64,000 bases of DNA from the IMG/VR virus record IMGVR_UViG_3300031519_004866. The stretch is one strand, 5' to 3'. The notes beneath the pieces are model-generated. The model made no database searches. It saw only the letters and a program-made list of their open reading frames with translations, and had not been told where the DNA came from. Made by a program: the position numbers and the translations under genes. This document shows positions 8,294-55,991 of this stretch, piece after piece. Source of the DNA: a virus. How positions within the stretch are numbered: the first letter of the stretch is position 1; every line of letters starts with the position of its first letter.

Positions 8294-8315
8294 CATGAAA
8301 ATAGGAGCGTTTTAA

Positions 8316-20531: not shown

Positions 20532-21888
20532 AGATAGAATAGAACAGTTTATACCTATTATGGACGCATTAAGTCCTACGTTTTGTATGGCTAAATGGCA
20601 CCACACAACTATATATTTAGGCACAGGTGAAACACACAGTTGTTATCATCCTGCTCCCCACAAGATCCCATTAGAAGAATTAAAAGATAATCCTAGTGCA
20701 TTACATAATACAAAACAAAAGAAATCCGAACGTCAAGCAATGATGAACGGTGAAAAGCCAAGTGGTTGTCAATACTGCTGGAATGTTGAATGTATGGGCA
20801 AAGACTATATTAGTGACCGTAAAGAACGTAATGCAAGTATCTATACACCAGAACGTTTTGATGCTATTAAAGAAGATCCTATGGCAAACGTTAATCCGCA
20901 ATATGTAGAAGTTAGTTTTGGTAATGAGTGTAATTTTAAATGCGGTTATTGCCATCCTAAGCATAGTAGTGCATATTATAAAGAGATTGAACAAAATGGT
21001 CCTTACAGCATGGTTAAGAATCATAGGAATGATATTGATTGGTTTGAAATACACAAAGACGAAGAAACCAATCCTTATGTAAAAGCATGGTGGGAATGGT
21101 GGCCTGAACTACGTAAGACATTAACTATTTTGCGTATTACTGGAGGCGAGCCTTTACTACAGCAAAGCACATGGCGTATGTTTGACGAGTTAGAAAAGAA
21201 CCCATGTCCTAATTTAGAACTTAATATTAACACTAACTTAGGTGTTAAGCCAATTCTTATTGAACGTTTTACTGATAAAGTAAACAGTCTAGTAAGCAAA
21301 GGCTGTATTAAAGACTTTAAAATATTTACAAGTATGGACACTTGGGGTAAACAAGCAGAGTATATTAGAACAGGACTAGACTTGGAGTTATGGGAAAAGA
21401 ACCTAGACACCTACATGACTAAGACTAATATGCCATTAACATTTATGATTACATTTAACATACTAACAGTAACTAATTTTAGCAAACTGTTAGAAAAGAT
21501 TCTAGAATGGCGTGTAAAGTATAACAGTGATGATCAAACTAAATGGCAGCGTATTAGATTCGACTCACCATATTTAAAAGAGCCGTTGCAGTACGACATG
21601 AATATTTTACCTAAAGACAAATTTATGCCTTACATGAAACAGCACTTACAGTATATTGTTGATCACCAAGATGATAAAGATAGACACAAGTTTAGTGAAT
21701 TAGAATATGAAAAATTTCGTCGTGTTGTTGACTATATGGAAAGTACACATTATACTGTTGAAAAATTGACAGAAGGCCGCAGAGATTTTTATCAATGGTT
21801 TACTGAATACGATCGTAGACGTAATGTAAACTTTGTAGAAACATTCCCGGAGTTAGAGGAGTTTTACTTTGACTGCGCCGGTGTCTAA
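20521..21888 (+). CDS. Radical SAM protein with N-terminal Cys-rich (twitch/SPASM-like) domain
   Basis: CNFKCGYC (CxxxCxxC) and ITGGEP; N-terminal Cys in FCMAKW, HSCYH, CQYC. Confidence 0.85.
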   Translation: MQDKDRIEQFIPIMDALSPTFCMAKWHHTTIYLGTGETHSCYHPAPHKIPLEELKDNPSALHNTKQKKSERQAMMNGEKPSGCQYCWNVECMGKDYISDRKERNASIYTPERFDAIKEDPMANVNPQYVEVSFGNECNFKCGYCHPKHSSAYYKEIEQNGPYSMVKNHRNDIDWFEIHKDEETNPYVKAWWEWWPELRKTLTILRITGGEPLLQQSTWRMFDELEKNPCPNLELNINTNLGVKPILIERFTDKVNSLVSKGCIKDFKIFTSMDTWGKQAEYIRTGLDLELWEKNLDTYMTKTNMPLTFMITFNILTVTNFSKLLEKILEWRVKYNSDDQTKWQRIRFDSPYLKEPLQYDMNILPKDKFMPYMKQHLQYIVDHQDDKDRHKFSELEYEKFRRVVDYMESTHYTVEKLTEGRRDFYQWFTEYDRRRNVNFVETFPELEEFYFDCAGV

Positions 21889-23047
21889 AACATTTTGCAT
21901 ATTGCCTTGGGTACATGTGTATGCCAACCCTGATGGTAACGTGTTACCTTGCTGTGTAGGCGATTATCGATTGCCGATGGGCAATATTCAAAACTCTACA
22001 TTAGAACAAACGTTTAATAACGATAAGTTTAAGACTATGCGTAAGAACATGCTGCAAGGAAAAAGTTGCAAAGAGTGTTCGGCATGTTATCGTGACGAAG
22101 CTGACAACAATGATAGTTTTAGAAAATCATCAAATTTACAATTTAAAAAATATATTCCTAATGCACTAACCAACACAAATGATGACGGATCACTTGATGA
22201 TTATAAATTAAGGTATTTAGACATTAGATGGAGTAACATCTGTAATTACAAATGTCGTTCATGCAGCGGCACATATTCATCTAGTTGGGCAAAAGAAGAA
22301 GGTAAGAAAAATGTGTTTACCTTTGCAGGCGGAACTTCTAATGACAATCTATACAATCAGTTTTTGCCACACTTTGATACTATAGAAGAATTTTATTTTG
22401 CAGGTGGCGAACCGTTACTAACAGATAAACATTATGACATTTTAGAATATCTTATTAAGCATAACAGAACTGATGTAAAGCTACGTTACAACACTAATGT
22501 TTCTGTATTAAAGTATAAAAATAAAAATATATTAGATTTGTGGAAACAGTTTAGTAATGTTTATATTGGTGCAAGTTTAGATCATTACGGTAGTCGTGCT
22601 GAATATATTAGAAACGGTACTGATTGGAAAAATGTAGAAACTAATATGAGAAAGATACGTACTGAAACTCCGCATATTAGTTTACAAACTAACACAGTAG
22701 TATCGTTGTTTAATGTTTCTACACTACCAGAATTTATGCATTACCTTATTGATAACGAACTTGTTAATGATGATTATGATCCGCACTTTTATAATATTTT
22801 ACATCCTGACTTTTATAGCTTTGATGTATTACCAGAAGAATTTAAAAAACAAACTGTAGAAAAATTATTAGAGTTTAACAACGAACAGAAAAATGTAAAC
22901 TTGCAACCTGTAATTAACGGGTTAACATCTGCTACATACAAACCAAACCTTGTAAGTACGTTTTTACAAAAAACAGAACACTATGATATAATAAGAAATG
23001 AAAATTTTAATAAAACATTTCCAGAACTAGTAGGATTATTTCAATGA
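21869..23047 (+). CDS. Radical SAM protein with N-terminal Cys-rich domain (paralogue)
   Basis: CNYKCRSC and FAGGEP; N-terminal FCILPW, PCC, CSAC; TTG start with GAGGA RBS. Confidence 0.85.
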   Translation: MTAPVSKTFCILPWVHVYANPDGNVLPCCVGDYRLPMGNIQNSTLEQTFNNDKFKTMRKNMLQGKSCKECSACYRDEADNNDSFRKSSNLQFKKYIPNALTNTNDDGSLDDYKLRYLDIRWSNICNYKCRSCSGTYSSSWAKEEGKKNVFTFAGGTSNDNLYNQFLPHFDTIEEFYFAGGEPLLTDKHYDILEYLIKHNRTDVKLRYNTNVSVLKYKNKNILDLWKQFSNVYIGASLDHYGSRAEYIRNGTDWKNVETNMRKIRTETPHISLQTNTVVSLFNVSTLPEFMHYLIDNELVNDDYDPHFYNILHPDFYSFDVLPEEFKKQTVEKLLEFNNEQKNVNLQPVINGLTSATYKPNLVSTFLQKTEHYDIIRNENFNKTFPELVGLFQ

Positions 23048-26307: not shown

Positions 26308-26336
26308 TATACAGTTATTTGAAAAGGAAAAATGTA

Positions 26337-27515
26337 ATGAAAATTGGATTCATAGGACTAGGCAAATTGGGGTTACCATGCGCTGAAGCTATTGCTCAAA
26401 AAGGACATAACGTTTCTGGATATGATACTAGAGAAGTTACAAGTAATTTAGTAACAGTACATTCGTCAATATCAACAATGGTTAAAGATCGAGATATTGT
26501 TTTTGTAGCAGTACCTACACCTCATGATCCTTCATATGATGGTAGAGCACCAACAGCACATTTAGAACCTAAAGATTTTAGTTATGACATTGTAATAGAT
26601 GTACTAAAAGAAGCAAACGCTAATATGAGCAAAGACCAATTACTAGTCCTTATTAGCACAGTACTACCAGGAACAACAAGAGAAGAATTTGTACCTTTAA
26701 TACATAACACACGGTTTGTATACAACCCATACTTAATTGCAATGGGTACTGTTGCACACGACATGGTCAATCCAGAGATGGTAATGATTGGTACAGAAGA
26801 TGGTAGTGAAACCGGTGATGCCAAACAACTTGTAGACTTCTATAAAACAATTATGGAAAACAATCCAAGATACGAAATTGGCACCTGGGATGAATGCGAG
26901 TGTATCAAAGTTTTTTATAATACATTTATTAGCACGAAACTTGGACTTGTTAATATGATTCAAGATGTTGCTGAAAAGCAAGGACACATTAATGTAGATG
27001 TTGTTACAGATGCGTTAGCTAACAGTACACAACGTATTATGGGACCTAGTTATATGAAAGCAGGACTAGGCGATGGCGGTGGATGTCATCCACGTGACAA
27101 TATTGCACTGCGCTACATGGCAGACAAATTAGATTTGGGCTATGATATTTTTGATGCTATTATGAATGCTAGAGAAATACAAGCAAAGAATATGGCACAG
27201 GTATTAATTGACAACGCTACGCAGTACGATCTTCCTATCTTACTTAACGGTATTGCTTATAAGCCTGGAGTTCCGTATGTTGATGGCAGTTATGCACTAC
27301 TAGTAGGACATTATTGTAACGAAGCAGGATTTCCGCCAATTCAAATTGATCCGTTAGCATTTGAACCAAACAATAGAACATACAGTGCTGTTGTTCTTAT
27401 GTCTCATCCTGAGCTGTATGTATCGTTAAATGACGATAGTGTTGTAGTTGATCCGTGGAGAGAATACAAATCTAACAGACATAAAGTAATTCATTACGGT
27501 AATACTAGAACATAA
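26337..27515 (+). CDS. ugd: UDP-glucose/GDP-mannose dehydrogenase family protein
   Basis: Rossmann IGFIGLGKLG, FVAVPTP, STVLPGTT, YNP, KVFYNTF and catalytic GGGCHPRD. Confidence 0.9.
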   Translation: MKIGFIGLGKLGLPCAEAIAQKGHNVSGYDTREVTSNLVTVHSSISTMVKDRDIVFVAVPTPHDPSYDGRAPTAHLEPKDFSYDIVIDVLKEANANMSKDQLLVLISTVLPGTTREEFVPLIHNTRFVYNPYLIAMGTVAHDMVNPEMVMIGTEDGSETGDAKQLVDFYKTIMENNPRYEIGTWDECECIKVFYNTFISTKLGLVNMIQDVAEKQGHINVDVVTDALANSTQRIMGPSYMKAGLGDGGGCHPRDNIALRYMADKLDLGYDIFDAIMNAREIQAKNMAQVLIDNATQYDLPILLNGIAYKPGVPYVDGSYALLVGHYCNEAGFPPIQIDPLAFEPNNRTYSAVVLMSHPELYVSLNDDSVVVDPWREYKSNRHKVIHYGNTRT

Positions 27516-31943: not shown

Positions 31944-32867
31944 TTAAGTTCCAATTGCATTACCAAATAAGTATACATGTACTCTAGCAGCTACATTATA
32001 ACCTTTCTGAAATGCCATTTTTGCAACATGCCCTGCGGTTGCGGTTTGTTCTTCTTCTCTAGCACCAACGGGCATTACCCAAATAGGAAAGTCAACATCT
32101 ACTTCACGAAATTGTGCTATAGCTGCCTCCATGTCATCCCACTCACGTTGTAAACTACCAACAACAAACTTTAATTGTCCTTTGCTAGATAATTTACGAT
32201 ACTGCTCAACTACTTCGGGTCTAATTGCTTTCTTAGCAAGTTCGCCTGATGTGCTAAACAGTTTAGGTGATACACTAAAGAATAATTCAATTTCTGTTTC
32301 TTGTTGCCAGAAGTTAATAAACTCTTGTGTAAGATTTTGTGTACCGTTAGTTTCAAATGTAATACTAGCGGGTAAATTATTTTGTGCTTTAAGCTCTCGC
32401 ATAATACCTATAAACGCTTTCTGACTTTGTGGCATCATAGGTTCGCCGCCTGTAACACAGAAGTGTTGCCTCTGTTGCGATACAGGATGTAAGAATAACC
32501 CTTCCGGGTTACTCTCTGTTTTTAAGATATCAATAATCTTATGTGCTAATGCCTTAGGAGTTTCTTGCCCCATTAAGTGTTTATATCGTTTAGCCCATGT
32601 GTAACTGCTGTCACAACCTTTATCCCAAACAGGTAAGTCTTCTACTTTATCAATTTTAGATAAATCAAAAGTTTCAAACGGAAGTTCGTATGTATCAGGA
32701 TTAGTTGGATCTAATTGTCCAAACCCGTTACATTGCAAGTTACATAAAAAGAATCTAATCCAAGCAGTAGGAACACCAGTGTATTGTCCTTCACCTTGAA
32801 TACTGTGAAAAATTTCACTGTAGTAATACTTCTTAGTATCTTCGGTAGTTGCGATTGTTTCATTCAT
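31944..32867 (-). CDS. queE: 7-carboxy-7-deazaguanine synthase (QueE-like radical SAM)
   Basis: YSEIFHSIQGEG..TG.PT..IRF..CNLQC...CD, VTGGEP, FETNGT, SVSPKL. The third Cys follows a ~35-aa insertion. Confidence 0.9.
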   Translation of the reverse strand: MNETIATTEDTKKYYYSEIFHSIQGEGQYTGVPTAWIRFFLCNLQCNGFGQLDPTNPDTYELPFETFDLSKIDKVEDLPVWDKGCDSSYTWAKRYKHLMGQETPKALAHKIIDILKTESNPEGLFLHPVSQQRQHFCVTGGEPMMPQSQKAFIGIMRELKAQNNLPASITFETNGTQNLTQEFINFWQQETEIELFFSVSPKLFSTSGELAKKAIRPEVVEQYRKLSSKGQLKFVVGSLQREWDDMEAAIAQFREVDVDFPIWVMPVGAREEEQTATAGHVAKMAFQKGYNVAARVHVYLFGNAIGT

Positions 32868-32873
32868 ACTACT

Positions 32874-32903
32874 ATTATACCTTCTTTTCATCGGTGTTGT
32901 CAA
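32874..32903 (-). promoter_or_regulatory. sigma70-type promoter for queE (probably leaderless mRNA)
   Basis: TTGACA-18 nt-TATAAT, then 6 nt, then ATG 32867. Confidence 0.7.
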
Positions 32904-33275: not shown

Positions 33276-33650
33276 TTAGTATTGTTGTTTTGACGGAATG
33301 ACGCCTCGAACGCCGCCCTTAGGATCTTCCGTATCACCGTCTCTACGAAAGATTAAATGTACATGCGGATACATAACAGTTTGTCCTGCACTCTCACCTA
33401 CATTTAAACCAATATTGTAACCTGTGATATTAGTCTTATCACTGATTACGTTATCGTACCCCATAGTAACAGCAAAGTTAAAACATTTCATAATGCCTTC
33501 ACTGTCTGCTGTTTTAGGTACAATTAATGTGTGACCTTCAGTAACCGGATACTTGTCACGAAACACTGTAAAATCTCTAGTGTCAATTTCAATGTCATTC
33601 CAAGGAGCACGGCCTTCGCTTTTTGCTAACTCTAATGTATCAGCTTTCAT
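33276..33650 (-). CDS. HIT-family nucleotide hydrolase
   Basis: DKYPVTEGHTLIVPK, GYNIGLNVGESAGQTV, histidine triad variant PHVHLIFRR. Confidence 0.85.
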   Translation of the reverse strand: MKADTLELAKSEGRAPWNDIEIDTRDFTVFRDKYPVTEGHTLIVPKTADSEGIMKCFNFAVTMGYDNVISDKTNITGYNIGLNVGESAGQTVMYPHVHLIFRRDGDTEDPKGGVRGVIPSKQQY

Positions 33651-33873
33651 AACGACCTCGTCCAGTTTTTACTTTAAATTCTCTTGGACCCGGTGTAGTA
33701 AATTCCATACCAGCCATTCCGCCGACGTATGTTTTACCATTCCATCGCATGTGAATTTTATTTGTTGCAATATATACTTCAACAAACTCTTTAGATTTAA
33801 AATTGCCAACTTCTGCATCTACAACTTTGTCGTTGTGTGTGCATGTTACTGCGCATTGATCGTCATAACTCAT
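33640..33873 (-). CDS. Hypothetical protein
   Basis: 77 aa from ATG 33873, AGGAG RBS. Confidence 0.7.
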   Translation of the reverse strand: MSYDDQCAVTCTHNDKVVDAEVGNFKSKEFVEVYIATNKIHMRWNGKTYVGGMAGMEFTTPGPREFKVKTGRGRYES

Positions 33874-34418
33874 GTGTACTCTCCTACATTTTCCCAAGGA
33901 TAAACAAGCCAAACATCTTCTTCAAATTTGTTTATTTCGTGACATGTGTAACTAACAGGAACTGTAGCGTCACTTGCTAGATTATTAGTTAGGGTAGCAA
34001 ACCGAACGTTACTATACCAAACTTTCTCCCATCTCGGATCATCAGGCAAACAACTAGCAGGCCAGTCTTCCTTAATCCAATTGAAAGTAGCACCAGTATC
34101 GTTAATGTCGTCTACAATAAGGATTTTCTTTGCTGTAGTAGGACCACCAATATTTGGATCACTTGCGTATCCGTATGCATCTTCTGCCATCCATAAGTTG
34201 CTTTCGCTTTGACTGTTATCGTCACGTAGACTTACTTTAAGTGCTTCGCAACGTATGCCAGTCATGTTGCTAATAATAGTAGCAGGCACATTTCCGCCTC
34301 GTGTTAGACCTACAATGTAATCAGGCCGCCAACTGTCAGCGTACATCTGATTAACAATGCTTACACACATTTTTTCTACGTCAGCCCAGCTATAATAATG
34401 TTTCTTAATATCACCCAT
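33870..34418 (-). CDS. Purine (xanthine/hypoxanthine-guanine) phosphoribosyltransferase-like protein
   Basis: IVGLTRGG and PRPP-binding loop ILIVDDINDTGAT; C-terminal WLVYPWE as in Gpt. Confidence 0.85.
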   Translation of the reverse strand: MGDIKKHYYSWADVEKMCVSIVNQMYADSWRPDYIVGLTRGGNVPATIISNMTGIRCEALKVSLRDDNSQSESNLWMAEDAYGYASDPNIGGPTTAKKILIVDDINDTGATFNWIKEDWPASCLPDDPRWEKVWYSNVRFATLTNNLASDATVPVSYTCHEINKFEEDVWLVYPWENVGEYT

Positions 34419-34839
34419 GATTTAAATAATCCTCGTTGTGTATCCATTTACCATCTTTAACAAAACCCCATTCTTGAGCTTTCTTGCCCATATAAAAAAT
34501 GCTCCAGCATGGAATTTCGTTTCCGTCTGCGTCTTTAGCAAGTTCTAACCAATGCAAATCTTTTGCTGTTCTAAAACGTATACTACCAGGCCCACGCCAA
34601 AACTTACCTTCTGAAGTGTGTTCCCAATAGCCACCTTTAATAATTAATGCTCCCCAACTCCACGGATGATCGTGTAGTGTAGGTTCGTCACTTACTAGTA
34701 CTTTGTGCATAGTAATATTAAACGGAAAGTTTTTTCTGTCTTTTAAAAATAGATAGTATCTAATTAGATACGGAATTGTGTTATCTCTATCGTAGATAAT
34801 ACGCTCTCGTCCAATTAGTTTTAAAAACTTAAGAAACAT
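34411..34839 (-). CDS. Cupin-fold metalloprotein
   Basis: LHDHPW...GGYWEH...DLHWLEL gives an H-x-H...E...H metal set. Confidence 0.65.
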   Translation of the reverse strand: MFLKFLKLIGRERIIYDRDNTIPYLIRYYLFLKDRKNFPFNITMHKVLVSDEPTLHDHPWSWGALIIKGGYWEHTSEGKFWRGPGSIRFRTAKDLHWLELAKDADGNEIPCWSIFYMGKKAQEWGFVKDGKWIHNEDYLNHG

Positions 34840-35636: not shown

Positions 35637-36326
35637 CTATTTTCCACAAGCAAATTCTTGCTGTAGTTTAATGTTATCAAAAAATTCCTTCTTAGTGCCA
35701 GCGTCATCTTTAAACGCACCTTTTAAAACAGTTGTCTGTGTAAGACTGCTATTTGCCATAATGCCTCTGTTCTCACAACACCCGTGTGTTGCTTGGATGT
35801 AAACACCTACGTTAGTAGATCCAGTTGAACTCATAATCTCTCTAGCAATATCATTACATAGTTCTTCTTGTAATGTGCCACGTCTAGCACACCATTGTGC
35901 AATACGTGTATATTTGCTAAGTCCAATTAAAGTTTCTCCAGCAATAATTCCAATATATGCAACACCAGTTACGGGTTGATGATGATGTGAGCAAACACTT
36001 TTAAGCTCACTGCGTACAACTAGCATACCTTCGTATCCGTTATCTATGTGATTAGGAAATGCAGTTGCATTAGGCATAGGATCATATCGACCTGCCATTA
36101 ATTCATTTACATACATTTTTGCTAGGCGTTTACCAGTATCCATACTGTTAGGATCTGTATAACGATCAATTACAAGACCGTCTAATACTGCTTCGAACTT
36201 AGGTGTAAGTTCTTCAATTAATAATTGTTTGTCGCCCTCTTGCAGGACTTCACTAATGTTGTCGCCAGCCCAAAATCTAACGCCTGCGTCTTGTAGTTTT
36301 GTTTTAATTTTTTCACTTATACTCAA
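35637..36326 (-). CDS. folE: GTP cyclohydrolase I
   Basis: Zn ligands in SVCSHH and HGCCENRG; GLSKYTRI...RRGTLQE; TTG start with GGAGA RBS. Confidence 0.95.
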   Translation of the reverse strand: MSISEKIKTKLQDAGVRFWAGDNISEVLQEGDKQLLIEELTPKFEAVLDGLVIDRYTDPNSMDTGKRLAKMYVNELMAGRYDPMPNATAFPNHIDNGYEGMLVVRSELKSVCSHHHQPVTGVAYIGIIAGETLIGLSKYTRIAQWCARRGTLQEELCNDIAREIMSSTGSTNVGVYIQATHGCCENRGIMANSSLTQTTVLKGAFKDDAGTKKEFFDNIKLQQEFACGK

Positions 36327-36369
36327 TTTTATTCTCCGATGTTTAGGCAGTGGATTGCCAACTTTTATA

Positions 36370-37419
36370 TTATTTTAACACATTTAATAGATCTGAGCAA
36401 CTAAAATATTGCTCATTTAGTACTTGTACCTGTTTATTTAGGCGAGGTAAGTACTTTTTATAATTTTCCATGTAATCTATAATTTGTGCAACCACTTGTT
36501 CTTTGTGTTCTTTGTATGCAGCAAATGACGTTGTCCAATCACTAGGATATTTAAACTCGTCTAATGCCATTTCAGTATAGCTTAAACGGTCCGGAACCAT
36601 AGGAATAGTGTCTACAAGCGCACCCTCATACCAACTAATGCCAAGTGTTTCTTGCAAATTAGCACTGAATACTAGTTTAGCTTCACCTAATAAGTTGTGG
36701 TATTCGTTCTTCGATAGTTGCTTTTCTTGACAAACAACAAATTCATATTGCGGAAGTGCTTCTCTAAGATCTTCAAATATGTCAACTTGCTTCTCAGGAG
36801 CAACACGATGCGGAAACAAAATAAGATCTCGTTTCGGCATACCTTTGTACATTGTTAATGTATTTGCCATATACTCAAATGGCCAACCAGTTCTAATTGC
36901 TTTGTCCATGTCAACACTGTAGTTGTCATTAAACGCTTCTAAAAACATGTCAATGTGAAAGTTACTTGCAAAAAAGTTATGATTATAACATTCATACATT
37001 GACATTTCAGCATGTCTTACCCACGGTTTGTCTCCGATCAGTCTGCCTAAAAAATCAGCAGGGTCATAACTACCAGCATGCCATAAGCCACCAATTCGAA
37101 TGTCCACGCCCAACAGTTCAGCCATGTAGCGCAACTGAATAACAGTTGGGTTCCACGCATCCGTATATAGGAAATAATCTCCATCTTTTACTTCTCCTTT
37201 ACAAAATGCTTCAGCAATAATTTCTAACTGCTTACTTTTGTAAACATTAGTTCCACCGAAGTTGAGGAACGCCCCAGGAGTTGTTGCCTGAGGCGTATCC
37301 CCACCGTTGACTACGGTTACTGTATGGCCATGTCCTCGCAACAGATTTGGAAACTGCGTTTTCCACTGCTTAGTGTAACGTGTTTCTACTGCTTCTAAGT
37401 CAACTAGCCATATGTTCAT
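36370..37419 (-). CDS. GT-B-fold glycosyltransferase (GT4 / Glycos_transf_1-like)
   Basis: ILFPHRVAPEKQ and the E-x7-E donor motif QETLGISWYE followed by PMVPDRLSYTEM. Confidence 0.75.
   Translation of the reverse strand: MNIWLVDLEAVETRYTKQWKTQFPNLLRGHGHTVTVVNGGDTPQATTPGAFLNFGGTNVYKSKQLEIIAEAFCKGEVKDGDYFLYTDAWNPTVIQLRYMAELLGVDIRIGGLWHAGSYDPADFLGRLIGDKPWVRHAEMSMYECYNHNFFASNFHIDMFLEAFNDNYSVDMDKAIRTGWPFEYMANTLTMYKGMPKRDLILFPHRVAPEKQVDIFEDLREALPQYEFVVCQEKQLSKNEYHNLLGEAKLVFSANLQETLGISWYEGALVDTIPMVPDRLSYTEMALDEFKYPSDWTTSFAAYKEHKEQVVAQIIDYMENYKKYLPRLNKQVQVLNEQYFSCSDLLNVLK
36372..36400 (-). promoter_or_regulatory. Possible sigma70 promoter for folE
   Basis: TTGCTC-17 nt-TAAAAT; short GGCA/TGCC hairpin in the leader. 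Confidence 0.45.
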
Positions 37420-37620
37420 TTAGTTTCTCCGTTTATTAAATTTCTTTTGGAATGACTTCTTATAGCCATGGCGGTTTTCAAACGCTCTAAAAGCTCTACT
37501 TTCTCGCTTATAAAGATCACGTTCATCAAATTTAAAACCGTTGAATCGACAAAATTCTTTGTACGCTTCGAGATCCGTAAAGATCTTAACCACGTCTGGC
37601 CGATCTGCAAAATAACCCAT
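37420..37620 (-). CDS. Small basic hypothetical protein
   Basis: 66 aa with AAGGAG RBS; abuts the GT start. Confidence 0.65.
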   Translation of the reverse strand: MGYFADRPDVVKIFTDLEAYKEFCRFNGFKFDERDLYKRESRAFRAFENRHGYKKSFQKKFNKRRN

Positions 37621-37632
37621 TGTAGGTCTCCT

Positions 37633-38094
37633 TTAATACTTTGCATATTCAATATGGGCACCGTTTTCTCCGTCTTCGGAGACATCGATGTGGACTTCAC
37701 GTCCGGGGTGTTTTGTTGTGATTTGTTCATACAAATCATCTGACATCATTTCACAAGATTTATAATCTACATTAAGTTCACCTTCATACAGTTTCTCAAG
37801 CCAACGCTTGAATTGAATAAACTCAATATCTCTGTCGTTATGTGTTACAGTGATACCTACTCTAAAATGAAAGATGTGTCTGTGGGGATAACCCAAAAAA
37901 CTAACATCGTATTCATCACCTGTTGCAAGACTAGGATCATCTAGTGCCGCAGGATACTTATGGATACCTTCTTTAGTGAAAGTAACCCAAATCATTCGCT
38001 TTGCATTTTGCATAGCATTTTCTTTATCGTTTGCCATATTTTCTTCTTTCATACGTCTTAACATATAGTTGTAATAAGATTCACGTTGTTGCAT
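37633..38094 (-). CDS. T-fold QueD paralogue (DpdL-like, predicted CDG decarboxylase type)
   Basis: EGIHKYP...FLGYPHRHIFHF: QueD-like His metal ligands with Leu in place of the QueD catalytic Cys (L-x3-HRH-x-F); SCEM and SEDGENGA T-fold tail. Confidence 0.65.
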   Translation of the reverse strand: MQQRESYYNYMLRRMKEENMANDKENAMQNAKRMIWVTFTKEGIHKYPAALDDPSLATGDEYDVSFLGYPHRHIFHFRVGITVTHNDRDIEFIQFKRWLEKLYEGELNVDYKSCEMMSDDLYEQITTKHPGREVHIDVSEDGENGAHIEYAKY

Positions 38095-38121: not shown

Positions 38122-38652
38122 TCAATCAATAAGTTTGTCTTTGTCATATTCACTCCAATGAGTAAATTTAGTATGATCCATAAGGTCACGAACCCTATGA
38201 CACCAAACACCTGGATTAGATGCCTTAAAGCCTTTGTCATCAATTTTTAGCATAGCGTTGTAACCAAGTTGATCAACATACGGCAATGGTACACGGATCT
38301 GCGGAATAAAGTAGATATTTTCTACTAATCCACTGTCCATAAAGTCTTCTACAGCAGCAATTGGAATATCTAAGCTACAAAAAATTTCGTCATTAACGAA
38401 CACTTCGATCATGTCTTCCCACTCTTCCCAGTCTGCAGCTACCCACGACTTTTGTGGATCAAAGCTATGATTAGCACCAAAAAAGATATGTTCACAGCCA
38501 TATGTGCTAAACATGTCACGAATGTCAGATACATCATGAATACCGGTAACGAACAATGTTTTCTTTCCAAATGCAGGAGTTTTTTCAACTTCTACACCTA
38601 CAAAAAATTTTGCTGTACTTGATACGTGACCATCTTCGTATGTACGTTCCAT
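38122..38652 (-). CDS. Uncharacterised protein in the deazaguanine locus
   Basis: 176 aa with AGGAGA RBS; motifs FFGANHSF and KIDDKGFKASNPGVWCH; no family recognised. Confidence 0.75.
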   Translation of the reverse strand: MERTYEDGHVSSTAKFFVGVEVEKTPAFGKKTLFVTGIHDVSDIRDMFSTYGCEHIFFGANHSFDPQKSWVAADWEEWEDMIEVFVNDEIFCSLDIPIAAVEDFMDSGLVENIYFIPQIRVPLPYVDQLGYNAMLKIDDKGFKASNPGVWCHRVRDLMDHTKFTHWSEYDKDKLID

Positions 38653-40209: not shown

Positions 40210-40947
40210 TTAGGCCGCCTGTGCTGGAATGATATATTTGTATGTTGCTAAACCACTGTCTAATTCGATCTGGATAGCACCTTCGTTACTAAGACTCATC
40301 TTAGTGTTGTTTACATCTGCAATTTTAAGAATTGCTAAGATACTTGCAACAGGCCAAGTCCAACCACGATCCAATGTACCTATAGTGTCAGTAGCAAACA
40401 CAAACTCGCCACCATGCGAACCTGCATCACCAAAGATAAACTTCAAATTGCCGTCCTCAGTTTTAGCTAAGAATGTTGGATGCTCACTATTAGCACCTGC
40501 TTGGAAGTTAAAACGTTGCACACCAGCAAGTGATGGAACAACTTCTACATCCCACTTAACACCGCGGAACTTAACAGTTTTCATCTTCTCATTAATAATT
40601 TCCATAAGCATAAACTTATAGTCGTTTTTAAAATCGCCTGTTGCGTTTTCAAATTTAATTCCTGTTGGAATAGTTTGGTCGTTACGCACACCAGTTGTTA
40701 CACTAATCTTAGCGTCAGTTTTATATTCACTACCATCTAGCAAATACTTTAACTTTTGAAGCTGTGGCATACCAAACGTGCCAAGCATGTCTGGATAAGG
40801 ATTGTGCGTCTTTGCTTCCATAATAACTGATCTATCATCAGCCATAGAAAACATTGTAGTTTCACTTTCTTCACCAGATACCTTGACAGTTGTCAAGAAT
40901 CCCAAGTTCTGTGTGTGATCTACGATATCTTTTAGTATGTCTTTCAT
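40210..40947 (-). CDS. DNA polymerase sliding clamp (gp45/PCNA-like)
   Basis: 245 aa, alternating beta/alpha pattern, C-terminal TYKYIIPAQ; directly downstream of the polymerase. A clamp loader is also in the window. Confidence 0.65.
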   Translation of the reverse strand: MKDILKDIVDHTQNLGFLTTVKVSGEESETTMFSMADDRSVIMEAKTHNPYPDMLGTFGMPQLQKLKYLLDGSEYKTDAKISVTTGVRNDQTIPTGIKFENATGDFKNDYKFMLMEIINEKMKTVKFRGVKWDVEVVPSLAGVQRFNFQAGANSEHPTFLAKTEDGNLKFIFGDAGSHGGEFVFATDTIGTLDRGWTWPVASILAILKIADVNNTKMSLSNEGAIQIELDSGLATYKYIIPAQAA

Positions 40948-40974
40948 TTTTAGAGTTCTCCGTTTGTTATATAC

Positions 40975-41003
40975 ATTATATTTAGGTTTTTGTTAAAGAG
41001 CAA
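40975..41003 (-). promoter_or_regulatory. sigma70-type promoter for the clamp-dpdA operon
   Basis: TTGCTC-17 nt-TATAAT upstream of GGAGA and ATG 40947. Confidence 0.6.
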
Positions 41004-41020
41004 GAATTTTTTTATCCAAA

Positions 41021-43690
41021 CTACTCAAAGTCAAACAAGCTATTAAAGTTATTATCACTTCTAGTAGATTTAATATCCCAATCCAATACTCCAATAAGGT
41101 TGCCAAGTTTTTCGTCAATGACTGCATTTTCCATAGCCTCGCCATCAAATGGCAGTTCTTTAAACCATTGCGGTATTCTTAGTTCGTCTACAGGATATGC
41201 AATACTTGTATAGCCCATAGGATTCTGTTTAACTTTACAAACAATAACTTTAGCACCGTCAGTGATAGTAATAGAATACTTGTCATCATTCATACGCTTT
41301 AGCGTGTTCCAGTTAATACTTGCTCGAACATGTCCGGGCATGTTAGCTTTACCTTGCTTCTTTTCTTTAGCTTGGTATTCAGTAACTTTGTTTGCACGTT
41401 TAGGTGATCCTTTCTCCCAACCAGGTCTTGCTTTAAATTCTGTTCTAAATTCAGTAATGTAATCTAGTACATTTTGTTGTTCGGCACCTGCAAGTACACG
41501 AGTCAACACTTCATTTAAAAATTCCTGAATAATAACAGGAGTATCCGAACGTTTAAGATCTAAGCCCATTGCTTTAATCTTTCCGTCTTTGCCGTCTACA
41601 TCTGTACGTTTGCCTTCAATATCGTAATACAATACAGCATAACGCTTTTTAGTAATAAACAGACCTTTGGTTGCAACAATTTCTCTAGCTGCCGCAATAA
41701 CATCTGAACGACTCTTTGGACAATGGAATGCATCCATCATAAACTTAGGAAACGTTGTATTGCAGTTGTCGCCTATTGTGTCATACAAGTTCATAACACT
41801 TTCACGATCCCACGGAATATTACCTGCATCTATCTCATCTTTAAGTGTGCTATATGCACTAAAGTATGTAGAGTCAGTATCACCATATACAATTGACTTG
41901 CCAGTGTGATCATACTCGCCAGTGATAATTTCGTTAATCTTTGCAGCCATATGTTTAACAATAGCTCTGCCACTTAGTGTTGTTGATTGTCCAATACGGT
42001 TATCAAAGAATCTACAACCTGGATTAAGAATAGCACCATATAAACTGTTAAGCAAAATCTTTTTAACTAACTGCCTTTTAGCCCAGTATTCTTCTTCAAT
42101 TGGATTATTTGCAGAAATAGCATCACGCATCTTGCCTTGCATTTCTTTACGTTCTTTATACCAACGTTTTAGTAGTCCAGGAATGATACCTTCTTTTTCG
42201 TGTGTAAAGATAGTACCGTTAGCACTAAGCATCCATGGCTGGTTACTTTCGTAAATTAGATCGTATACCTGAGCAGCACTAAGAGTGTCTTCACCGCCGC
42301 CTTCTTCCCAATCAATAGTAAGTTGTCTACCAACTTCTTTAGCCATTACAGCTTCGTATTCTACAGAACCAAACTGACCTTCCCAAGCACTAGCAAAACT
42401 TTTACCTTTAGCCATCTCAGCCTCAATACGTGCTTTAGTACCATCTTGACGTAGTTGACCAACAATAGTTTCTGGACCCATGTTTAACGCACGAATCACA
42501 CTAGGATATAGTGAGTTCAAGTCAACACTACCAATCCACTCGTGAATACCTTTTTTAGGATATGCTACATAAGCACCAGCTGCTGGCTCGCTGCCTGGCT
42601 CTCTGCGAATTCTGTTTGGAACAATAAAGCCACGTCTGTGTGCTTCGTTAATAATGCCTTGTTCTGTAACAGCAACAGCACCCATAGTTGTTTGAATAAG
42701 AACTGTGTTTTCGTGTGCAATAGTATTTGCAAGATCAATAAACTTCAGTTTCTTATCTAACTTGTCTAGTAGTGCAGTATCTTGAATGTTATATTCAATA
42801 AACGTTCTAAAATTGTTGTTGTATAGTGCATCAAGTGAACCATCATAAACAGTTTTGTTCTCACCGATCTCTAACTCACCAATAGCATCTAGTCGATATG
42901 TATGGCGTTCTTCATAATTATATTTTCTATATAGTTCTAATGAGTCTACATGCACTCGTCCAATTAAATCATAAGTTACAGATGTTTTACCAAACTTCTC
43001 ATACTCACGCTTTTTAGGATATTGATTCCAAAGACACAACCGTTTTGTATCTTCTTTGCTTAATGTTTTAGTAATACGATTAACTGTGTACGGAATATCA
43101 AAGCCTTCGCTGTTCCATCCACTTAGTACATCAGCTTCTTGAATTACATCAAGAAATGCATCAAGCATTTCACTTTCTTTCTTAAACAGCATTACATTAG
43201 GAATGCCTTCGATAGCTTTCTCTGCTTCTTCCATGCTTAGTGTCTTAGGTGGAATTGCAAAACACACCATTGTTTCCATCCACTGCAAATACACAGAAAC
43301 AGATGTAATTGGCATAAACGCATCTTCTGGTGAAGCGTATCCACGCTCGGGATCAAAGTCAACCTCAATATCAAAAAACGCAACGTTTAGTTTAGGAGCG
43401 TCTTGATTGAGATAGTTATCTTCAAGCATTCTGTAAATTGGATTAATATCGCTTTCAAACAGTTTTTTGTTGCTATGGATAGCAAGTTCTTTGCGAAGCT
43501 CTTTGATGTTTTTACAAGTTACCCTTGATAGCGGTTGTCCATATATACTCTGGAACTTACCTCTAGGGTCTGCGTAATAAAAAATATGTCTTGGGTTGTA
43601 TTCTCGGTAATGTCTATTACCTTTTGCATCACGTTCAACAACGTTAATAACGTCCTGATCGCGATTATAGAAAGCGTCTACGTAACTCAT
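41021..43690 (-). CDS. Family B DNA polymerase with 3'-5' exonuclease (T4 gp43-like)
   Basis: ExoI FDIEVD, ExoII GWNSEGFD, ExoIII YNIQD; Pol motifs DLNSLYPS, KILLNSLYG, YGDTDS; C-terminal clamp-binding-like NSLFDF. Confidence 0.97.
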   Translation of the reverse strand: MSYVDAFYNRDQDVINVVERDAKGNRHYREYNPRHIFYYADPRGKFQSIYGQPLSRVTCKNIKELRKELAIHSNKKLFESDINPIYRMLEDNYLNQDAPKLNVAFFDIEVDFDPERGYASPEDAFMPITSVSVYLQWMETMVCFAIPPKTLSMEEAEKAIEGIPNVMLFKKESEMLDAFLDVIQEADVLSGWNSEGFDIPYTVNRITKTLSKEDTKRLCLWNQYPKKREYEKFGKTSVTYDLIGRVHVDSLELYRKYNYEERHTYRLDAIGELEIGENKTVYDGSLDALYNNNFRTFIEYNIQDTALLDKLDKKLKFIDLANTIAHENTVLIQTTMGAVAVTEQGIINEAHRRGFIVPNRIRREPGSEPAAGAYVAYPKKGIHEWIGSVDLNSLYPSVIRALNMGPETIVGQLRQDGTKARIEAEMAKGKSFASAWEGQFGSVEYEAVMAKEVGRQLTIDWEEGGGEDTLSAAQVYDLIYESNQPWMLSANGTIFTHEKEGIIPGLLKRWYKERKEMQGKMRDAISANNPIEEEYWAKRQLVKKILLNSLYGAILNPGCRFFDNRIGQSTTLSGRAIVKHMAAKINEIITGEYDHTGKSIVYGDTDSTYFSAYSTLKDEIDAGNIPWDRESVMNLYDTIGDNCNTTFPKFMMDAFHCPKSRSDVIAAAREIVATKGLFITKKRYAVLYYDIEGKRTDVDGKDGKIKAMGLDLKRSDTPVIIQEFLNEVLTRVLAGAEQQNVLDYITEFRTEFKARPGWEKGSPKRANKVTEYQAKEKKQGKANMPGHVRASINWNTLKRMNDDKYSITITDGAKVIVCKVKQNPMGYTSIAYPVDELRIPQWFKELPFDGEAMENAVIDEKLGNLIGVLDWDIKSTRSDNNFNSLFDFE

Positions 43691-50989: not shown

Positions 50990-51721
50990 CTATTTACCTG
51001 TTTCTACATATTTACAAACTGTGCCTATATTGTCAGAACACCTTAATTTAAGTAACATTAATGTTTGTTCGTCTTGTACATAGATGTATCTTCGAGTCTG
51101 CATATAAGGGCGATTAACATAAAACCATTTTTTAATAGATTCTGTAAATGTAATACGTGGACGTTGTGCTTCAAAAAAATTGCATAATTTATCTATATCG
51201 TCCCATGCTAATTTAGTTGGCCACTTTAAATCAACTCGATAATTATATCGACCATACGGCAATTTATCTACAAATATCTCTTTTGTACTATTAAGTAGAA
51301 TGTCTTCCATACCAGCAGCAGGTTGCGATCTTTGGAGTGTTATATCATTAAATTGCTGGCTTACTTCATTATATAAACTAACATCGTTTGTATATACGTC
51401 TACACTTTCACCTTCAACTCGAAACGAAAGATCTTTTTTTGGCACTCCAGAAAATAAAGATATAATTTTAGACCAAGTTTTGGCGTTGTTGTGTATTGTA
51501 TTGCCTACTTTTACTCTCCAGTCCATATAGCCTCGATTAGGAACAGGTTGAAAATGGCTATGTGGCGGTGGAACAGAAATAAAGTTAATAATTTGAGCAT
51601 ATGAAAGCAGCCGAAGAGCGCGAGCTCCCGGCAACTTTAAACTAACTTTATATATAAACTTATTATAAAATTTCTTATTGGTTATCTTGGGTTTCTGTAA
51701 CACTCTTAGTAGCCTCTTCAA
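50990..51721 (-). CDS. Hypothetical protein (start uncertain, possibly GTG 51703)
   Basis: ~240-aa ORF overlapping the clpA end. Confidence 0.65.
   Translation of the reverse strand: MKRLLRVLQKPKITNKKFYNKFIYKVSLKLPGARALRLLSYAQIINFISVPPPHSHFQPVPNRGYMDWRVKVGNTIHNNAKTWSKIISLFSGVPKKDLSFRVEGESVDVYTNDVSLYNEVSQQFNDITLQRSQPAAGMEDILLNSTKEIFVDKLPYGRYNYRVDLKWPTKLAWDDIDKLCNFFEAQRPRITFTESIKKWFYVNRPYMQTRRYIYVQDEQTLMLLKLRCSDNIGTVCKYVETGK
50991..50996 (-). promoter_or_regulatory. T4-late-like promoter (TAAATA)
   Basis: GGTAAATAGT 6 nt before ATG 50985. Confidence 0.5.
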
Positions 51722-54032
51722 TTTTAGCTTTAGCTTCTAACTTTTTTGCTTTACGTTGATCTTTAGTTAAAGGCTTTGGCATCGGCGTTACTTTAAATTC
51801 AGGTGTATCATTTACAATGCTAACAGCAACCTTGCCACCCTCTGCTAAATCACCAAACAGCACTCTTCGACTTAGAGGCGTTTTAATATTAGTATCAATA
51901 ACTCTTGCTAACGGTCTTGCACCCATCTTAGGATTGTAACCTTTCTTTGCTACCCAGTCAACAGCATCTTTATCTAATGTAATTAAAATGTTTTTCTCTT
52001 TGAGTTGAGTATTAAGTTCAGCAATAAATTTACCAACAATGCTCTTAACAACAGTTTTAGAAAGTTTAGCAAATTTAACAGTGCCATCAAGTCTATTTCT
52101 AAACTCTGGAGCAAAGAACTTTTTAACTGCTTTATCGTCTTCAGTATCTTTTTCATTGTCAGCAAAACCAATAAGTTTTGATTCGTTATCAGCAGCACCT
52201 AAGTTTGATGTCATAATAAGAATAGTATTACGTCCGTCTGCTTTCTTACCATTTGAGCCTGTAACAAATCCATTATCCATAAATTGTAACAAAATATTTG
52301 ATACATCCTTATGTGCTTTTTCAATTTCGTCTAATAGTAATACTGCATTAGGAGTTTCTTGTAGTTTATTAATTAGCTGTCCAGCATCATCATCGTAACC
52401 TACGTACCCTGGAGGCGCACCAATTAATCTTGCAACACTATGCTTTTCTTGGTATTCACTCATATCAAATCTAATAAGTGTCATGCCCATTTTATCAGCA
52501 AGTGATTTTGCAGTTTCAGTTTTACCTGTGCCAGTTGGGCCTAAGAATAAAAAGCTACCAATAGGTTTATTAGGATCTTTCATTCCACTTTGTGCAACAA
52601 AGATTTTATCAAGAATAGATTCAACTGCGGTATCTTGTCCAAACACTGCTTTCTTCATAGCAACATCAAGTCCTGCAAGGTTACCACTTTCTTTTTGTGA
52701 TACAGTTTCTAAAGGCATACTGATCATTTTAGAAAGTTCAAATGTAACTTGTTCAATATCAACTAACTGAACGATGCCTTCATTTTCTTTAGCATCATTA
52801 AGTTTGTACCTTGCAGATGCACAATCAATAATATCAATTGCTTTGTCTGGTAATTTCTTATCAGCCATATATTTAATTGAAAGATTTACTGCTTGTTGGA
52901 TAGCATCGTCAGTAATTTTAACATTATGATGTTGCTCATAGTACTTGCGTAGTCCTCTAATAATCTTTACAGTAAGTTCAGGTGTAGGTTCATCAACAGT
53001 TACACGTTGGAATCGACGCATTAATGCACGATCCTTTTCAAAGTACTTGCGATACTCTTCCCAAGTAGTTGAAGCAATAACTTTCATGTTGCCTTTAGTA
53101 AGTGCAGGCTTTAACATGTTAGCAAGATCGTTTGAACCTTGTGATGCTGATCCAGCTCCGCTCATCATATGTGCTTCGTCGATGAACAAAATAATATTAC
53201 CTTTGCGTTCTAATGCTGTTAATACTGCTTTAATACGTTCTTCAAAGTCGCCTCTATATTTACTACCAGCAACTAATGCACTAATATCTAAACTAAACAC
53301 AAGGTGGTCTTGAATAAACTTAGGAACTTTCTTTTCAAAAATCTTACGTGCAAGGCCTTCTGCAATAGCAGTTTTACCAACTCCTGGATCACCAACCATT
53401 AGTACATTTGCTTTATTACGTCTAGCTAGTACTAATTCAATTTTTTCAATTTCATCATCACGCCCGATAACAGGATCAATTACACGCTGTTTAGCTTTCA
53501 TAGATAAGTTAGTACAGAATTGATTAATAATCCTGTCAAGCTGATCTGGACTCAAATTAACTTCTCCTTCGTCGCCTTCAAAAAATTCTTCGTTGTTTAC
53601 GTGATGCTTTTGGAAATGCTGGACAAATTTTTCTTTATTAATTCCGCCTTTTGATAAGAAGTAAAATGCAAAAGAATTCTTTTCACTCATAACACTAATA
53701 ATAACATCAGCTGTTTCAATTTGATTACGTCCACTGAATAACACTTGTGTAAAGCATCTATTTAAAACACGTTCGACTGATGCAGTTTTTTTAGGTACAA
53801 TTTGTGGATCGTTAGATGTAATATCAGCTAAATTATTTTTTAGATAGTGCTCTAAGTTAGTTTTAATAAAATCAACATCGGCACCAAACTCTTGTAGTCC
53901 TGCTGCGGTTTCAGTATCACTAAAAATAGCACATACTAAGTGTTCAATAGTAATGTTGGTATGTGTATACTTTTGTGCAATACTAACTGATGAGTCAAAA
54001 ATTGCTTGTAGTTGTTTACTAGGTTCAATCAT
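51675..54032 (-). CDS. clpA: ClpA-type AAA+ unfoldase (two ATPase domains)
   Basis: Clp N-domain; GDPGVGKT/LFIDEAH; GPTGTGKT/LLDEIEKAH; FDMSEY; IGF loop (KLIGFA); GARPL. Confidence 0.92.
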   Translation of the reverse strand: MIEPSKQLQAIFDSSVSIAQKYTHTNITIEHLVCAIFSDTETAAGLQEFGADVDFIKTNLEHYLKNNLADITSNDPQIVPKKTASVERVLNRCFTQVLFSGRNQIETADVIISVMSEKNSFAFYFLSKGGINKEKFVQHFQKHHVNNEEFFEGDEGEVNLSPDQLDRIINQFCTNLSMKAKQRVIDPVIGRDDEIEKIELVLARRNKANVLMVGDPGVGKTAIAEGLARKIFEKKVPKFIQDHLVFSLDISALVAGSKYRGDFEERIKAVLTALERKGNIILFIDEAHMMSGAGSASQGSNDLANMLKPALTKGNMKVIASTTWEEYRKYFEKDRALMRRFQRVTVDEPTPELTVKIIRGLRKYYEQHHNVKITDDAIQQAVNLSIKYMADKKLPDKAIDIIDCASARYKLNDAKENEGIVQLVDIEQVTFELSKMISMPLETVSQKESGNLAGLDVAMKKAVFGQDTAVESILDKIFVAQSGMKDPNKPIGSFLFLGPTGTGKTETAKSLADKMGMTLIRFDMSEYQEKHSVARLIGAPPGYVGYDDDAGQLINKLQETPNAVLLLDEIEKAHKDVSNILLQFMDNGFVTGSNGKKADGRNTILIMTSNLGAADNESKLIGFADNEKDTEDDKAVKKFFAPEFRNRLDGTVKFAKLSKTVVKSIVGKFIAELNTQLKEKNILITLDKDAVDWVAKKGYNPKMGARPLARVIDTNIKTPLSRRVLFGDLAEGGKVAVSIVNDTPEFKVTPMPKPLTKDQRKAKKLEAKAKIEEATKSVTETQDNQ

Positions 54033-54553
54033 TGTTTTTTTAATCTCTTTTTTAATTTCGTCATAGCTAATTGTAACTTCAATCGCCCCACTTTGTCAAC
54101 GAAACAAATGCCATTTAGGTGATCTAATTCGTGTTGAAAGCATGTAGCAAGGTATCCTTCAATTTTTGCTTCTTTTGTTACGCCTTTAGAGTTTTGATAT
54201 TGTGCTATAATTGACTTGGGTCTTTTTAAATGCAACCATAGTCCTGGAAAACTCAAACATCCTTCTTTCTGCAAAACTTTATCTTCGCTGGATTCTAAAA
54301 TTACAGGATTAAAAACAGCAAATGGTTCAGGAAAGCCTGGAACATTTTGAGAGCCAATTGTAAATACTCTCTTTCTAATATTTAATTGATTAGCAGCAAG
54401 ACCAATGCCGTTGTGATTTAACATAAAGTTACACATATCATGTTCGAGTTCTTCAGGATCTAACTCTTCTTTTTCAAAATCCCATATATCGCTTTGTTCT
54501 TTTAACGATTGATGCATACCTAACTTATAATCTAAATCTAATTTATAATCCAT
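54029..54553 (-). CDS. def: Peptide deformylase
   Basis: GIGLAANQ, EGCLS, QHELDHL. Confidence 0.95.
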   Translation of the reverse strand: MDYKLDLDYKLGMHQSLKEQSDIWDFEKEELDPEELEHDMCNFMLNHNGIGLAANQLNIRKRVFTIGSQNVPGFPEPFAVFNPVILESSEDKVLQKEGCLSFPGLWLHLKRPKSIIAQYQNSKGVTKEAKIEGYLATCFQHELDHLNGICFVDKVGRLKLQLAMTKLKKRLKKQ

Positions 54554-55343: not shown

Positions 55344-55372
55344 ACTAGTACTTATTTTTAAATGCTAACGGA

Positions 55373-55956: not shown

Positions 55957-55978
55957 AATGTTTTCGCTCCTTATACTG

Positions 55979-55985
55979 TATTTAT
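55979..55985 (-). promoter_or_regulatory. T4-late-like promoter (ATAAATA)
   Basis: GATAAATACA 23 nt before ATG 55956. Confidence 0.6.
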
Positions 55986-55991
55986 CATTAA

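Follow-up and report, generated by a model that had tools for sequence, protein, structure and literature searches.

The protein DpdL is defined by the signature LxxxHRHxF and was proposed by Cui, Hutinet et al. (NAR 2023, PMC10516641) to decarboxylate 7-carboxy-7-deazaguanine (CDG) in phages such as phiST, in whose DNA 2'-deoxy-7-deazaguanosine (dDG) replaces all deoxyguanosine. When dpdL and dpdA of phage ACP17 or of phiST were placed in E. coli, no dDG was obtained, and the authors suspected that enzymes were missing (PMC10516641). The DNA of phage PA5oct resists cleavage at G-containing restriction sites, and a modified G, which the authors did not identify, was inferred from the presence of QueE and PTPS genes (PMC12191111). 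Here we describe a DpdL-type locus on a 64,000-nucleotide stretch of DNA from a giant phage of marine origin (IMG/VR record IMGVR_UViG_3300031519_004866; this whole stretch is called the window below), in which a gene for a predicted glycosyltransferase (GT; positions 36370-37419, minus strand) stands between dpdL and folE. The GT very probably belongs functionally to the DpdL-type 7-deazaguanine pathway.

As in the phiST system (PMC10516641), FolE, QueE, a DpdL with the LxxxHRHxF signature and a DpdA with the tRNA-guanine transglycosylase (TGT) fold were found near DNA polymerase genes; QueC, which phiST lacks, gave no profile match within the 64-kb window. In contrast, phiST has no member of the GT family, a short DpdA3 of 259 aa and plain dDG in its DNA, whereas the window has in addition the GT, a 515-aa DpdA3-like enzyme, a 176-aa protein (p176), a phosphoribosyltransferase-like protein (PRTase), a HIT gene and a cupin gene. 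The window DpdL aligned with the DpdL proteins of phiST (32% identity) and ACP17, and its LGYPHRHIF is the DpdL signature, found in place of the CxxxHGH motif of QueD.

Motifs and predicted fold of the glycosyltransferase

The GT gene is open throughout, has an ATG start and encodes a product of 349 aa. The donor-binding motifs reported earlier from the sequence alone were present, with LILFPHRVAPEK at residues 199-210 and QETLGISWYEG at residues 256-266, where E257-x7-E265 forms the EX7E motif. In an alignment of 51 family sequences, E265 and E138 were invariant, and E257, R205, K210 and H114 were conserved in at least 90% of the sequences. Judged by these residues, the donor site (EX7E plus Arg and Lys) looks intact.

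An AlphaFold2 model calculated with the 51-sequence alignment as input had a GT-B fold of two Rossmann-like domains, with a predicted local distance difference test (pLDDT) score of 95.7 and a predicted template modelling (pTM) score of 0.92. In VIA-align, the model matched sucrose-phosphate synthase (Z 25.6), BshA (Z 25.0, the second-best match, with a root-mean-square deviation of 3.0 over 303 residues) and glycogen synthase (Z 22.6) over approximately 300-315 residues, and Foldseek gave E values of approximately 1e-10 to glycogen synthase, BshA, MshA and PimA. No Pfam family matched at E ≤ 0.01, PF00534, PF13439 and PF13692 included, and there was no match in PHROG, NCBIfam or a sequence search of the PDB; the label GT4-type is therefore assigned here from the predicted fold and the motifs. 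We infer that the product is an active GT-B enzyme of the retaining type (GT4-like). Longer, fused versions of the GT were searched for and not found; this negative is weak evidence.

Co-occurrence of the glycosyltransferase with DpdA and DpdL

Three scans of IMG/VR yielded 185 unique GT loci, 91 of which had at least 5 kb on either side of the GT. In these well-flanked loci, DpdA was present in 91/91, at most a few kb from the GT, DpdL in 89/91, FolE in 87/91, QueE in 83/91 and QueC in 0/91. The sequence-only reading had named a GT occurring mostly without dpdA as the pattern that would speak against it, and the opposite pattern was found. No QueC was found in 228 GT loci, and a true QueD lay within 10 kb of the GT in only 33/91. 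The median distance between the GT and DpdL was 241 bp in the pooled IMG/VR loci. Moreover, the order family-B DNA polymerase (PolB), clamp, DpdA3, p176, DpdL and GT was kept in all 80 close marine loci that were long enough to show it, and the GT was followed there by PRTase, HIT, FolE and QueE.

In a divergent clade, whose GT was approximately 37% identical, DpdL stood beside the GT in 75/80 loci and had the signature in 73 of those 75. In 76/80 loci the GT also had beside it a DpdA of canonical type, marked by an LDSGAHSLY-like motif at the N-terminal end, and QueE, QueD and extra radical S-adenosylmethionine (radical-SAM) genes were nearby. Three different DpdA types were found to pair with the GT across loci, and the constant partner is therefore the DpdL chemistry. 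As a separate observation on the divergent clade, a radical-SAM enzyme of approximately 440 aa lay directly upstream of the GT in 77/80 loci (for example L150:8685-10004), and further radical-SAM genes came after the clamp gene.

Among cultured phages, a tblastn search combined with the family profile found the GT in Sinorhizobium phage Phosso, 11 PA5oct-like Wroclawviruses, Acidovorax phage ACP17, Xanthomonas phages X1 and BUDD, Burkholderia phage BCSR5 and Synechococcus phage BUCT-ZZ01. The GT and DpdL lay within approximately 3 kb of each other in each of six cultured lineages, with FolE and QueE close. A DpdA3-type gene was adjacent in all of them except Phosso, in which a DpdA3-like gene was found approximately 170 kb away; in ACP17 the GT is located between dpdL and dpdA. 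Gene order varied among these lineages, and the GT-DpdL pairing is therefore not one inherited block. The FolE-DpdA3-DpdL-GT cluster of BUCT-ZZ01 also contained a second, unrelated glycosyltransferase (Glyco_trans_1_4, 3.4e-05; 3388-4728 of the examined locus), which may point to a disaccharide or to a further acceptor.

Among 1.84 billion cluster representatives (clusters at 50% identity), an exhaustive HMMER search detected 1127 relatives of the GT with E ≤ 1e-3, so that the family comprises at least 1127 clusters; 258 of these relatives had E ≤ 1e-30. A word-index search gave at least 8000 matches, mostly marine metagenome proteins that were 73-99% identical. The family was present on hundreds of phage contigs from marine, soil and wastewater samples and, within the sampling so far, is confined to phages. 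A scan of 185,579 prokaryotic species genomes with a single narrow pattern yielded 6 GT loci, all on contigs of metagenome-assembled genomes; the 5 that were examined had DpdA and/or DpdL adjoining the GT, and the sixth was a duplicate of a viral contig already counted.

DpdL loci without the glycosyltransferase

DpdL was also found in phages that have no GT, namely phiST, Rhizobium phage RHph_I1_18, Aeromonas phage Ahp1 and Vibrio phages Bakedbeans and D479. Among well-flanked metagenomic DpdL loci, the GT was present in 24/34 and absent from 10/34 (approximately 30%). In the close family the GT implies DpdL and DpdL does not imply the GT, which is a nested and, from the side of the GT, near-obligate distribution. 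Because the GT occurs with DpdL and DpdL often without the GT, the distribution is the one expected of an optional tailoring step downstream of DpdL.

The two groups of loci also differed in the type of DpdA. The short phiST-type DpdA3 (approximately 260-290 aa) was found in 10/10 GT-negative DpdL loci compared to 0/228 GT loci, and GT-positive loci had a DpdA3 of 420-540 aa or a canonical-type DpdA of 326 aa. This mutual exclusion of the short DpdA3 and the GT may stem from the substrate specificity of the enzymes or simply from phylogeny.

A distant relative in Xanthomonas phage PhiXhv-12

A remote member of the GT family (E 4e-31 to the profile, residues 70-292) was found in Xanthomonas phage PhiXhv-12 (PV764601.1) and its kin, with no DpdL nearby. 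The genes there were, in order, a Gat-QueC fusion (PF06508, 2e-49) annotated as GlmS (L-glutamine-D-fructose-6-phosphate aminotransferase), a PIG-L-type de-N-acetylase, the GT relative and a GFO/IDH/MocA oxidoreductase; a GNAT protein was encoded upstream of this run (4669-8755 of the examined locus). This run is a second kind of sugar-plus-deazaguanine cluster and, by analogy, supports real sugar transfer in another deazaguanine context. Deacetylases of the PIG-L type act on N-acetylglucosamine (GlcNAc) already bound to the acceptor, as in the BshA/BshB and MshA/MshB pairs, and the pairing of the GT relative with such an enzyme resembles BshA/BshB. On this analogy, the sugar transferred in PhiXhv-12 is probably an N-acetylhexosamine.

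Genes surrounding the glycosyltransferase

The features of the locus are listed in Table 1. The GT lies between dpdL and folE in the same minus-strand run as a dpdA gene, as the sequence-only reading had it, and this run is headed by the PolB and clamp-like genes (40210-43690).

Table 1. Features of the deazaguanine locus in the window, by position
Feature	Position	Strand	Basis
QueE, 7-carboxy-7-deazaguanine synthase, radical SAM	31944-32903	-	phrog_2076 4.3e-52; QueE profile 5.5e-54
HIT-family nucleotide hydrolase or transferase	33276-33650	-	PF01230 2.8e-09
Xanthine/guanine phosphoribosyltransferase-like protein (PRTase)	33870-34418	-	PF00156 2e-09; NF009177 xanthine PRTase 2.9e-12
Cupin-like protein, accessory in part of the clade	34411-34839	-	phrog_4786 5.8e-32
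FolE, GTP cyclohydrolase I	35637-36326	-	PF01227 2.9e-37; phrog_2197
Predicted GT-B (GT4-like) glycosyltransferase, 349 aa	36370-37419	-	open reading frame; motifs; AlphaFold2 model; structural matches
DpdL, T-fold QueD paralogue, 153 aa, proposed 7-carboxy-7-deazaguanine decarboxylase	37633-38094	-	LGYPHRHIF; phrog_17812
p176, 176-aa protein that travels with long DpdA3	38122-38652	-	co-occurrence, 104 vs 105 loci
Predicted DpdA3-like DNA guanine transglycosylase, TGT fold, 515 aa	38654-40201	-	ILGDSGGYQ motif; AlphaFold2; Foldseek
Sliding-clamp-like gene	40210-40947	-	phrog_12062
Family-B DNA polymerase (PolB)	41021-43690	-	PF00136; PF03104

The AlphaFold2 model of the 515-aa protein had a pLDDT of 81.8, and its top 50 Foldseek matches in the PDB were all tRNA-guanine transglycosylase (Zymomonas mobilis TGT; E 2.5e-8). 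Residues D103, S104, G105 and G106, which make up the DSGG-type catalytic motif, were invariant in 30 homologues, one of which, in Vibrio phage 2.275.O, adjoins QueF, QueC and FolE. Because the model matched TGT only, the DSGG residues were invariant and the Vibrio phage homologue has this context, the protein is, on its predicted structure, a DpdA3-like DNA transglycosylase. Pfam misses all DpdA3-type proteins, and the best match was to TGT with an E value of 0.041, for the BCSR5 protein. In the same 80 close marine loci, the DpdA3-like protein was 38-45% identical to that of the window compared to 68-80% for the GT, so that the transglycosylase evolves much faster.

The protein p176 was found in 104 GT loci and the long DpdA3 in 105, and homologues of p176 occur in ACP17 and, under the annotation 'glycosylase', in Phosso. 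Pfam, PHROG and NCBIfam gave no family for it, it has no confident fold assignment, and the ESM Atlas gave only unnamed phage clusters; it may be a partner of DpdA.

No CxxxHGH motif and no match to the QueD profile, and hence no true QueD, was found within the 64-kb window. By analogy with PA5oct (gp230 vs gp162), QueD probably lies elsewhere in the genome. The cupin-like gene was present in 29/91 well-flanked GT loci, and its PA5oct-like homologue is annotated 'epimerase domain'. The PRTase was found in 53/91 and the HIT gene in 37/91. The PRTase also occurs in the PA5oct-like and BUCT-ZZ01 clusters and in GT-negative DpdL loci, and, on account of this and of its presence in only 53/91 GT loci, it is not a specific partner of the GT. 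It would serve to salvage guanine released by DpdA back towards GTP. With or without the GT, PRTase and HIT genes recur in the deazaguanine clusters of phages from several groups (marine, PA5oct-like and one cyanophage).

The 43-nt spacer between the GT and folE (36327-36369) contains a 4-bp GGCA/UGCC hairpin before a GGAG ribosome-binding site, and its folding stability did not exceed that of shuffled sequence (z -0.08). An open reading frame at 37416-37739 (107 aa), which overlaps dpdL, was kept in only 6/80 close loci and is probably no gene.

A late glycan cluster had been claimed for the plus strand approximately 9 kb from the GT. Among the open reading frames scanned, only radical-SAM/SPASM enzymes and one UDP-glucose/GDP-mannose dehydrogenase answered to this description: the radical-SAM/SPASM enzymes lie at 20491-23047, in a plus-strand block that the dehydrogenase (26319-27515) closes. 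At approximately 9 kb from the GT, the dehydrogenase might supply an unusual nucleotide sugar. In agreement with the earlier reading of the sequence, no hydroxymethylase or TET-like family of the kind that would go with 5-hydroxymethylcytosine (hmC) was found among approximately 60 open reading frames scanned, a part of those in the window. Elsewhere, a minus-strand run at 51675-56683 combines genes for a double AAA+ chaperone like ClpB (785 aa) and a full-length DnaJ with genes for a peptide deformylase and an Fe-S scaffold like NifU, and such a set of proteostasis and Fe-S genes is unusual for a phage.

Proposed pathway and alternatives

In the pathway that we propose, FolE and QueE, together with a QueD from another part of the genome, would convert GTP to CDG, and DpdL would convert CDG to 7-deazaguanine, which the long DpdA3-like transglycosylase would exchange for guanine in replicated phage DNA. 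The GT would then flip the modified base out and move a sugar from a nucleoside diphosphate-sugar onto it, and the glycosyl-7-deazaguanine in virion DNA would add bulk against nucleases. It is somewhat more likely than not that a sugar-bearing deazaguanine ends up in phage DNA. For the full chain, with sugar transfer on DNA after insertion by DpdA, we estimate a probability of about 0.4. The on-DNA order is preferred because known nucleic-acid sugar modifications are, as we read them, made at the level of the polymer; to our knowledge, every nucleic-acid glycosylation (T4 alpha- and beta-GT, HY126, base J, QTMAN/QTGAL) puts the sugar on the polymer. The sequence-only reading had held that the enzyme adds a sugar to the DpdA-inserted base as an anti-restriction modification. 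The tie to the pathway that it implied is strongly supported, and the reading as a whole partly so; a deazaguanine acceptor, transfer on DNA as opposed to the free base, the identity of the sugar, the linkage atom and a protective role are parts of our proposal.

Several points weigh against this chain. The normal acceptors of GT4 enzymes are hydroxyls. In phiST, the DpdL route is known to yield dDG, which has only C-H at position 7 (PMC10516641); a sugar would have to be attached through a C-, N2- or O6-linkage, which would be unusual, or DpdL would have to make another product. For the same reason, the analogy with O-glycosylation of the T4 type, drawn earlier, is not directly transferable, since the end product of DpdL has no C7 hydroxyl. 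Moreover, in hhalign the profile of the GT family matched T4 beta-GT (GT63) with a probability of 0.2% and alpha-GT with 1.0%. The invariant residues of the acceptor domain were mostly acidic or aromatic, without obvious contacts to a DNA backbone; by their sequence, such residues suit a nucleobase pocket. The family is acidic (median pI 5.5), which is weak evidence because the T4 alpha-GT used as a control is acidic as well (pI 6.1), and the use of pI as an argument against DNA binding was dropped after this control. Finally, the exclusion between the short DpdA3 and the GT could mean that the DpdA enzymes of GT loci themselves handle a different, pre-glycosylated base.

No candidate hydroxylase was found in ACP17, which has the minimal GT-positive gene set. 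Since dDG offers no hydroxyl either, the sugar would be linked at C7/C8, N2 or O6, or at the carboxyl if DpdL acts otherwise. With no hydroxyl on plain 7-deazaguanine to attach to, the linkage may be one without precedent for a GT4-type enzyme, for example an N-glycoside or a C-glycoside formed at the pyrrole carbon.

The most serious alternative, although we regard it as unlikely, is that the GT glycosylates free 7-deazaguanine or CDG and that the long or canonical DpdA inserts the pre-glycosylated base, much as eukaryotic TGT inserts the bulky queuine. This would explain why every DpdA found alongside the GT was of a type other than the short phiST-type DpdA3, although the split between DpdA types may be plain phylogenetic inheritance. 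An acidic and aromatic acceptor pocket with few conserved basic residues is consistent with a free base as acceptor, yet the nucleic-acid sugar modifications considered above are, on our reading of them, polymer-made. HuiG of huimycin biosynthesis, which has the GT4-type Pfam domain PF13439, does glycosylate a free 7-deazapurine base with UDP-GlcNAc (bioRxiv 10.64898/2026.04.15.718813); however, pockets of the TGT type bury the N2/N1 face of the base, and an N2-glycoside like that of huimycin should not fit. The failure of ACP17 dpdL and dpdA to give dDG in E. coli without the GT (PMC10516641) would agree with insertion of a glycosylated base, but the pair from GT-less phiST failed in the same experiment, which hence does not discriminate.

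It is distinctly improbable that the product is a soluble deazapurine glycoside that never enters DNA, whether a masked or storage form of the base pool or an antimetabolite against the host, with PRTase and HIT in the same branch. The recurrence of a xanthine/guanine-type PRTase and a HIT protein in the cluster fits such a branch, and actinomycetes make tubercidin- and huimycin-type metabolites from a CDG/preQ0 core by means of PRTases and GTs (bioRxiv 10.64898/2026.04.15.718813). In contrast, a DNA transglycosylase accompanied the GT in 91/91 well-flanked loci, ACP17 has the GT and neither a PRTase nor a HIT gene within the surrounding 17 kb, and a PRTase that is present in 53/91 GT loci and also in GT-negative DpdL loci is explained more simply by guanine salvage. 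A pterin glycoside, suggested by FolE, a T-fold protein and a GT with a match to tetrahydrobiopterin glucosyltransferase (Z 20.3), a combination reminiscent of how cyanobacteria make tetrahydrobiopterin glucosides, was rejected because QueE and DpdA accompany the GT almost always.

Least probable of all is a GT unrelated to deazaguanine that merely shares an early replication module and acts on a hydroxylated pyrimidine, a virion or host protein or an envelope glycan: GT-B enzymes are promiscuous in acceptor type, the fold is silent on the acceptor, and the window also encodes, at other places, radical-SAM enzymes of sugar type and a UDP-sugar dehydrogenase. Against this, the GT-DpdL-DpdA pairing is retained although gene order is fully rearranged, the DpdA is of three types and the hosts range from Pseudomonas to Synechococcus. 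The GT is also absent from phages that have DpdL and a comparable replication module, the five examined loci of the prokaryotic scan carry DpdA and/or DpdL beside it, and no hydroxymethylase was found among the scanned open reading frames of the window.

Implications of a possible glycosylated deazaguanine

Returning to sugar transfer onto 7-deazaguanine in DNA, the sugar-bearing bases of DNA include glucosyl-hmC, arabinosyl-5-hydroxycytosine and base J. Those described are pyrimidines (PMC13326640), and a literature search found no paper on a sugar-bearing deazaguanine in DNA, of phages or otherwise, as the sequence-only reading had supposed for phages. We give even odds to the proposition that these phages, the cultured PA5oct-like phages, ACP17, X1, BCSR5, Phosso and BUCT-ZZ01 among them, are the first in which any DNA has a glycosylated purine, with a sugar placed on 7-deazaguanine by a phage-specific GT family. 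If true, this would be a new class of DNA hypermodification. It would matter for restriction, for CRISPR and for defences of the type IV or glycosylase type, for efforts to sequence or clone such DNA, and for the development of enzymes that label 7-deaza-G. Members of the GT family occur in Pseudomonas jumbo phages that are therapeutic candidates and whose modified G is experimentally evident. Moreover, the missing GT may explain why reconstitution with ACP17 DpdL and DpdA failed without further enzymes.

Comparison with known systems

The T4 alpha-GT (GT72) in complex with DNA (1y6f; Z 18.5) and the glycosyltransferase of phage HY126 (PDB 9iqz; Z 19.2) are GT-B enzymes like the window GT, and the DNA of HY126 carries arabinosylated 5-hydroxycytosine (PMC13326640). 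T4 alpha- and beta-GT, the HY126 enzyme and the window GT are alike in standing among early replication and modification genes and in a presumed role in DNA protection. Generic GT4 enzymes were structurally closer to the window GT (Z 22-26) than were T4 alpha-GT and 9iqz, and the match to DNA-bound T4 alpha-GT was no better than that to generic GT-B enzymes. Enzymes of the T4 and HY126 type O-glycosylate hydroxylated pyrimidines, whereas the partner pathway of the window GT makes a purine analogue without a hydroxyl. BshA and MshA share the EX7E, Arg and Lys residues of the donor site with the window GT; in contrast, they are 9-14% identical to it, it has no Pfam GT4 score, and its acceptor domain is family-specific.

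The tRNA-modifying enzyme QTMAN (GTDC1; Zhao et al., Cell 2023) is reportedly a GT4-type enzyme that mannosylates queuosine in tRNA through the cyclopentenediol hydroxyl, and so, like the GT as proposed here, would place a sugar onto a 7-deazaguanine derivative already inside a nucleic acid. Pfam detected neither a DUF3524 nor a GT1 domain in the window GT. HuiG, compared by description, resembles the window GT as proposed here in that a glycosyltransferase, in its case one with a GT4-type Pfam domain (PF13439), meets an acceptor derived from 7-deazaguanine made by FolE, QueD and QueE. It differs in belonging to an actinomycete secondary-metabolite cluster without DpdA, in acting on a derivative of QueC-made preQ0 and in giving a soluble product. 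HuiG is the nearest chemical precedent for a deazaguanine-glycosylating GT.

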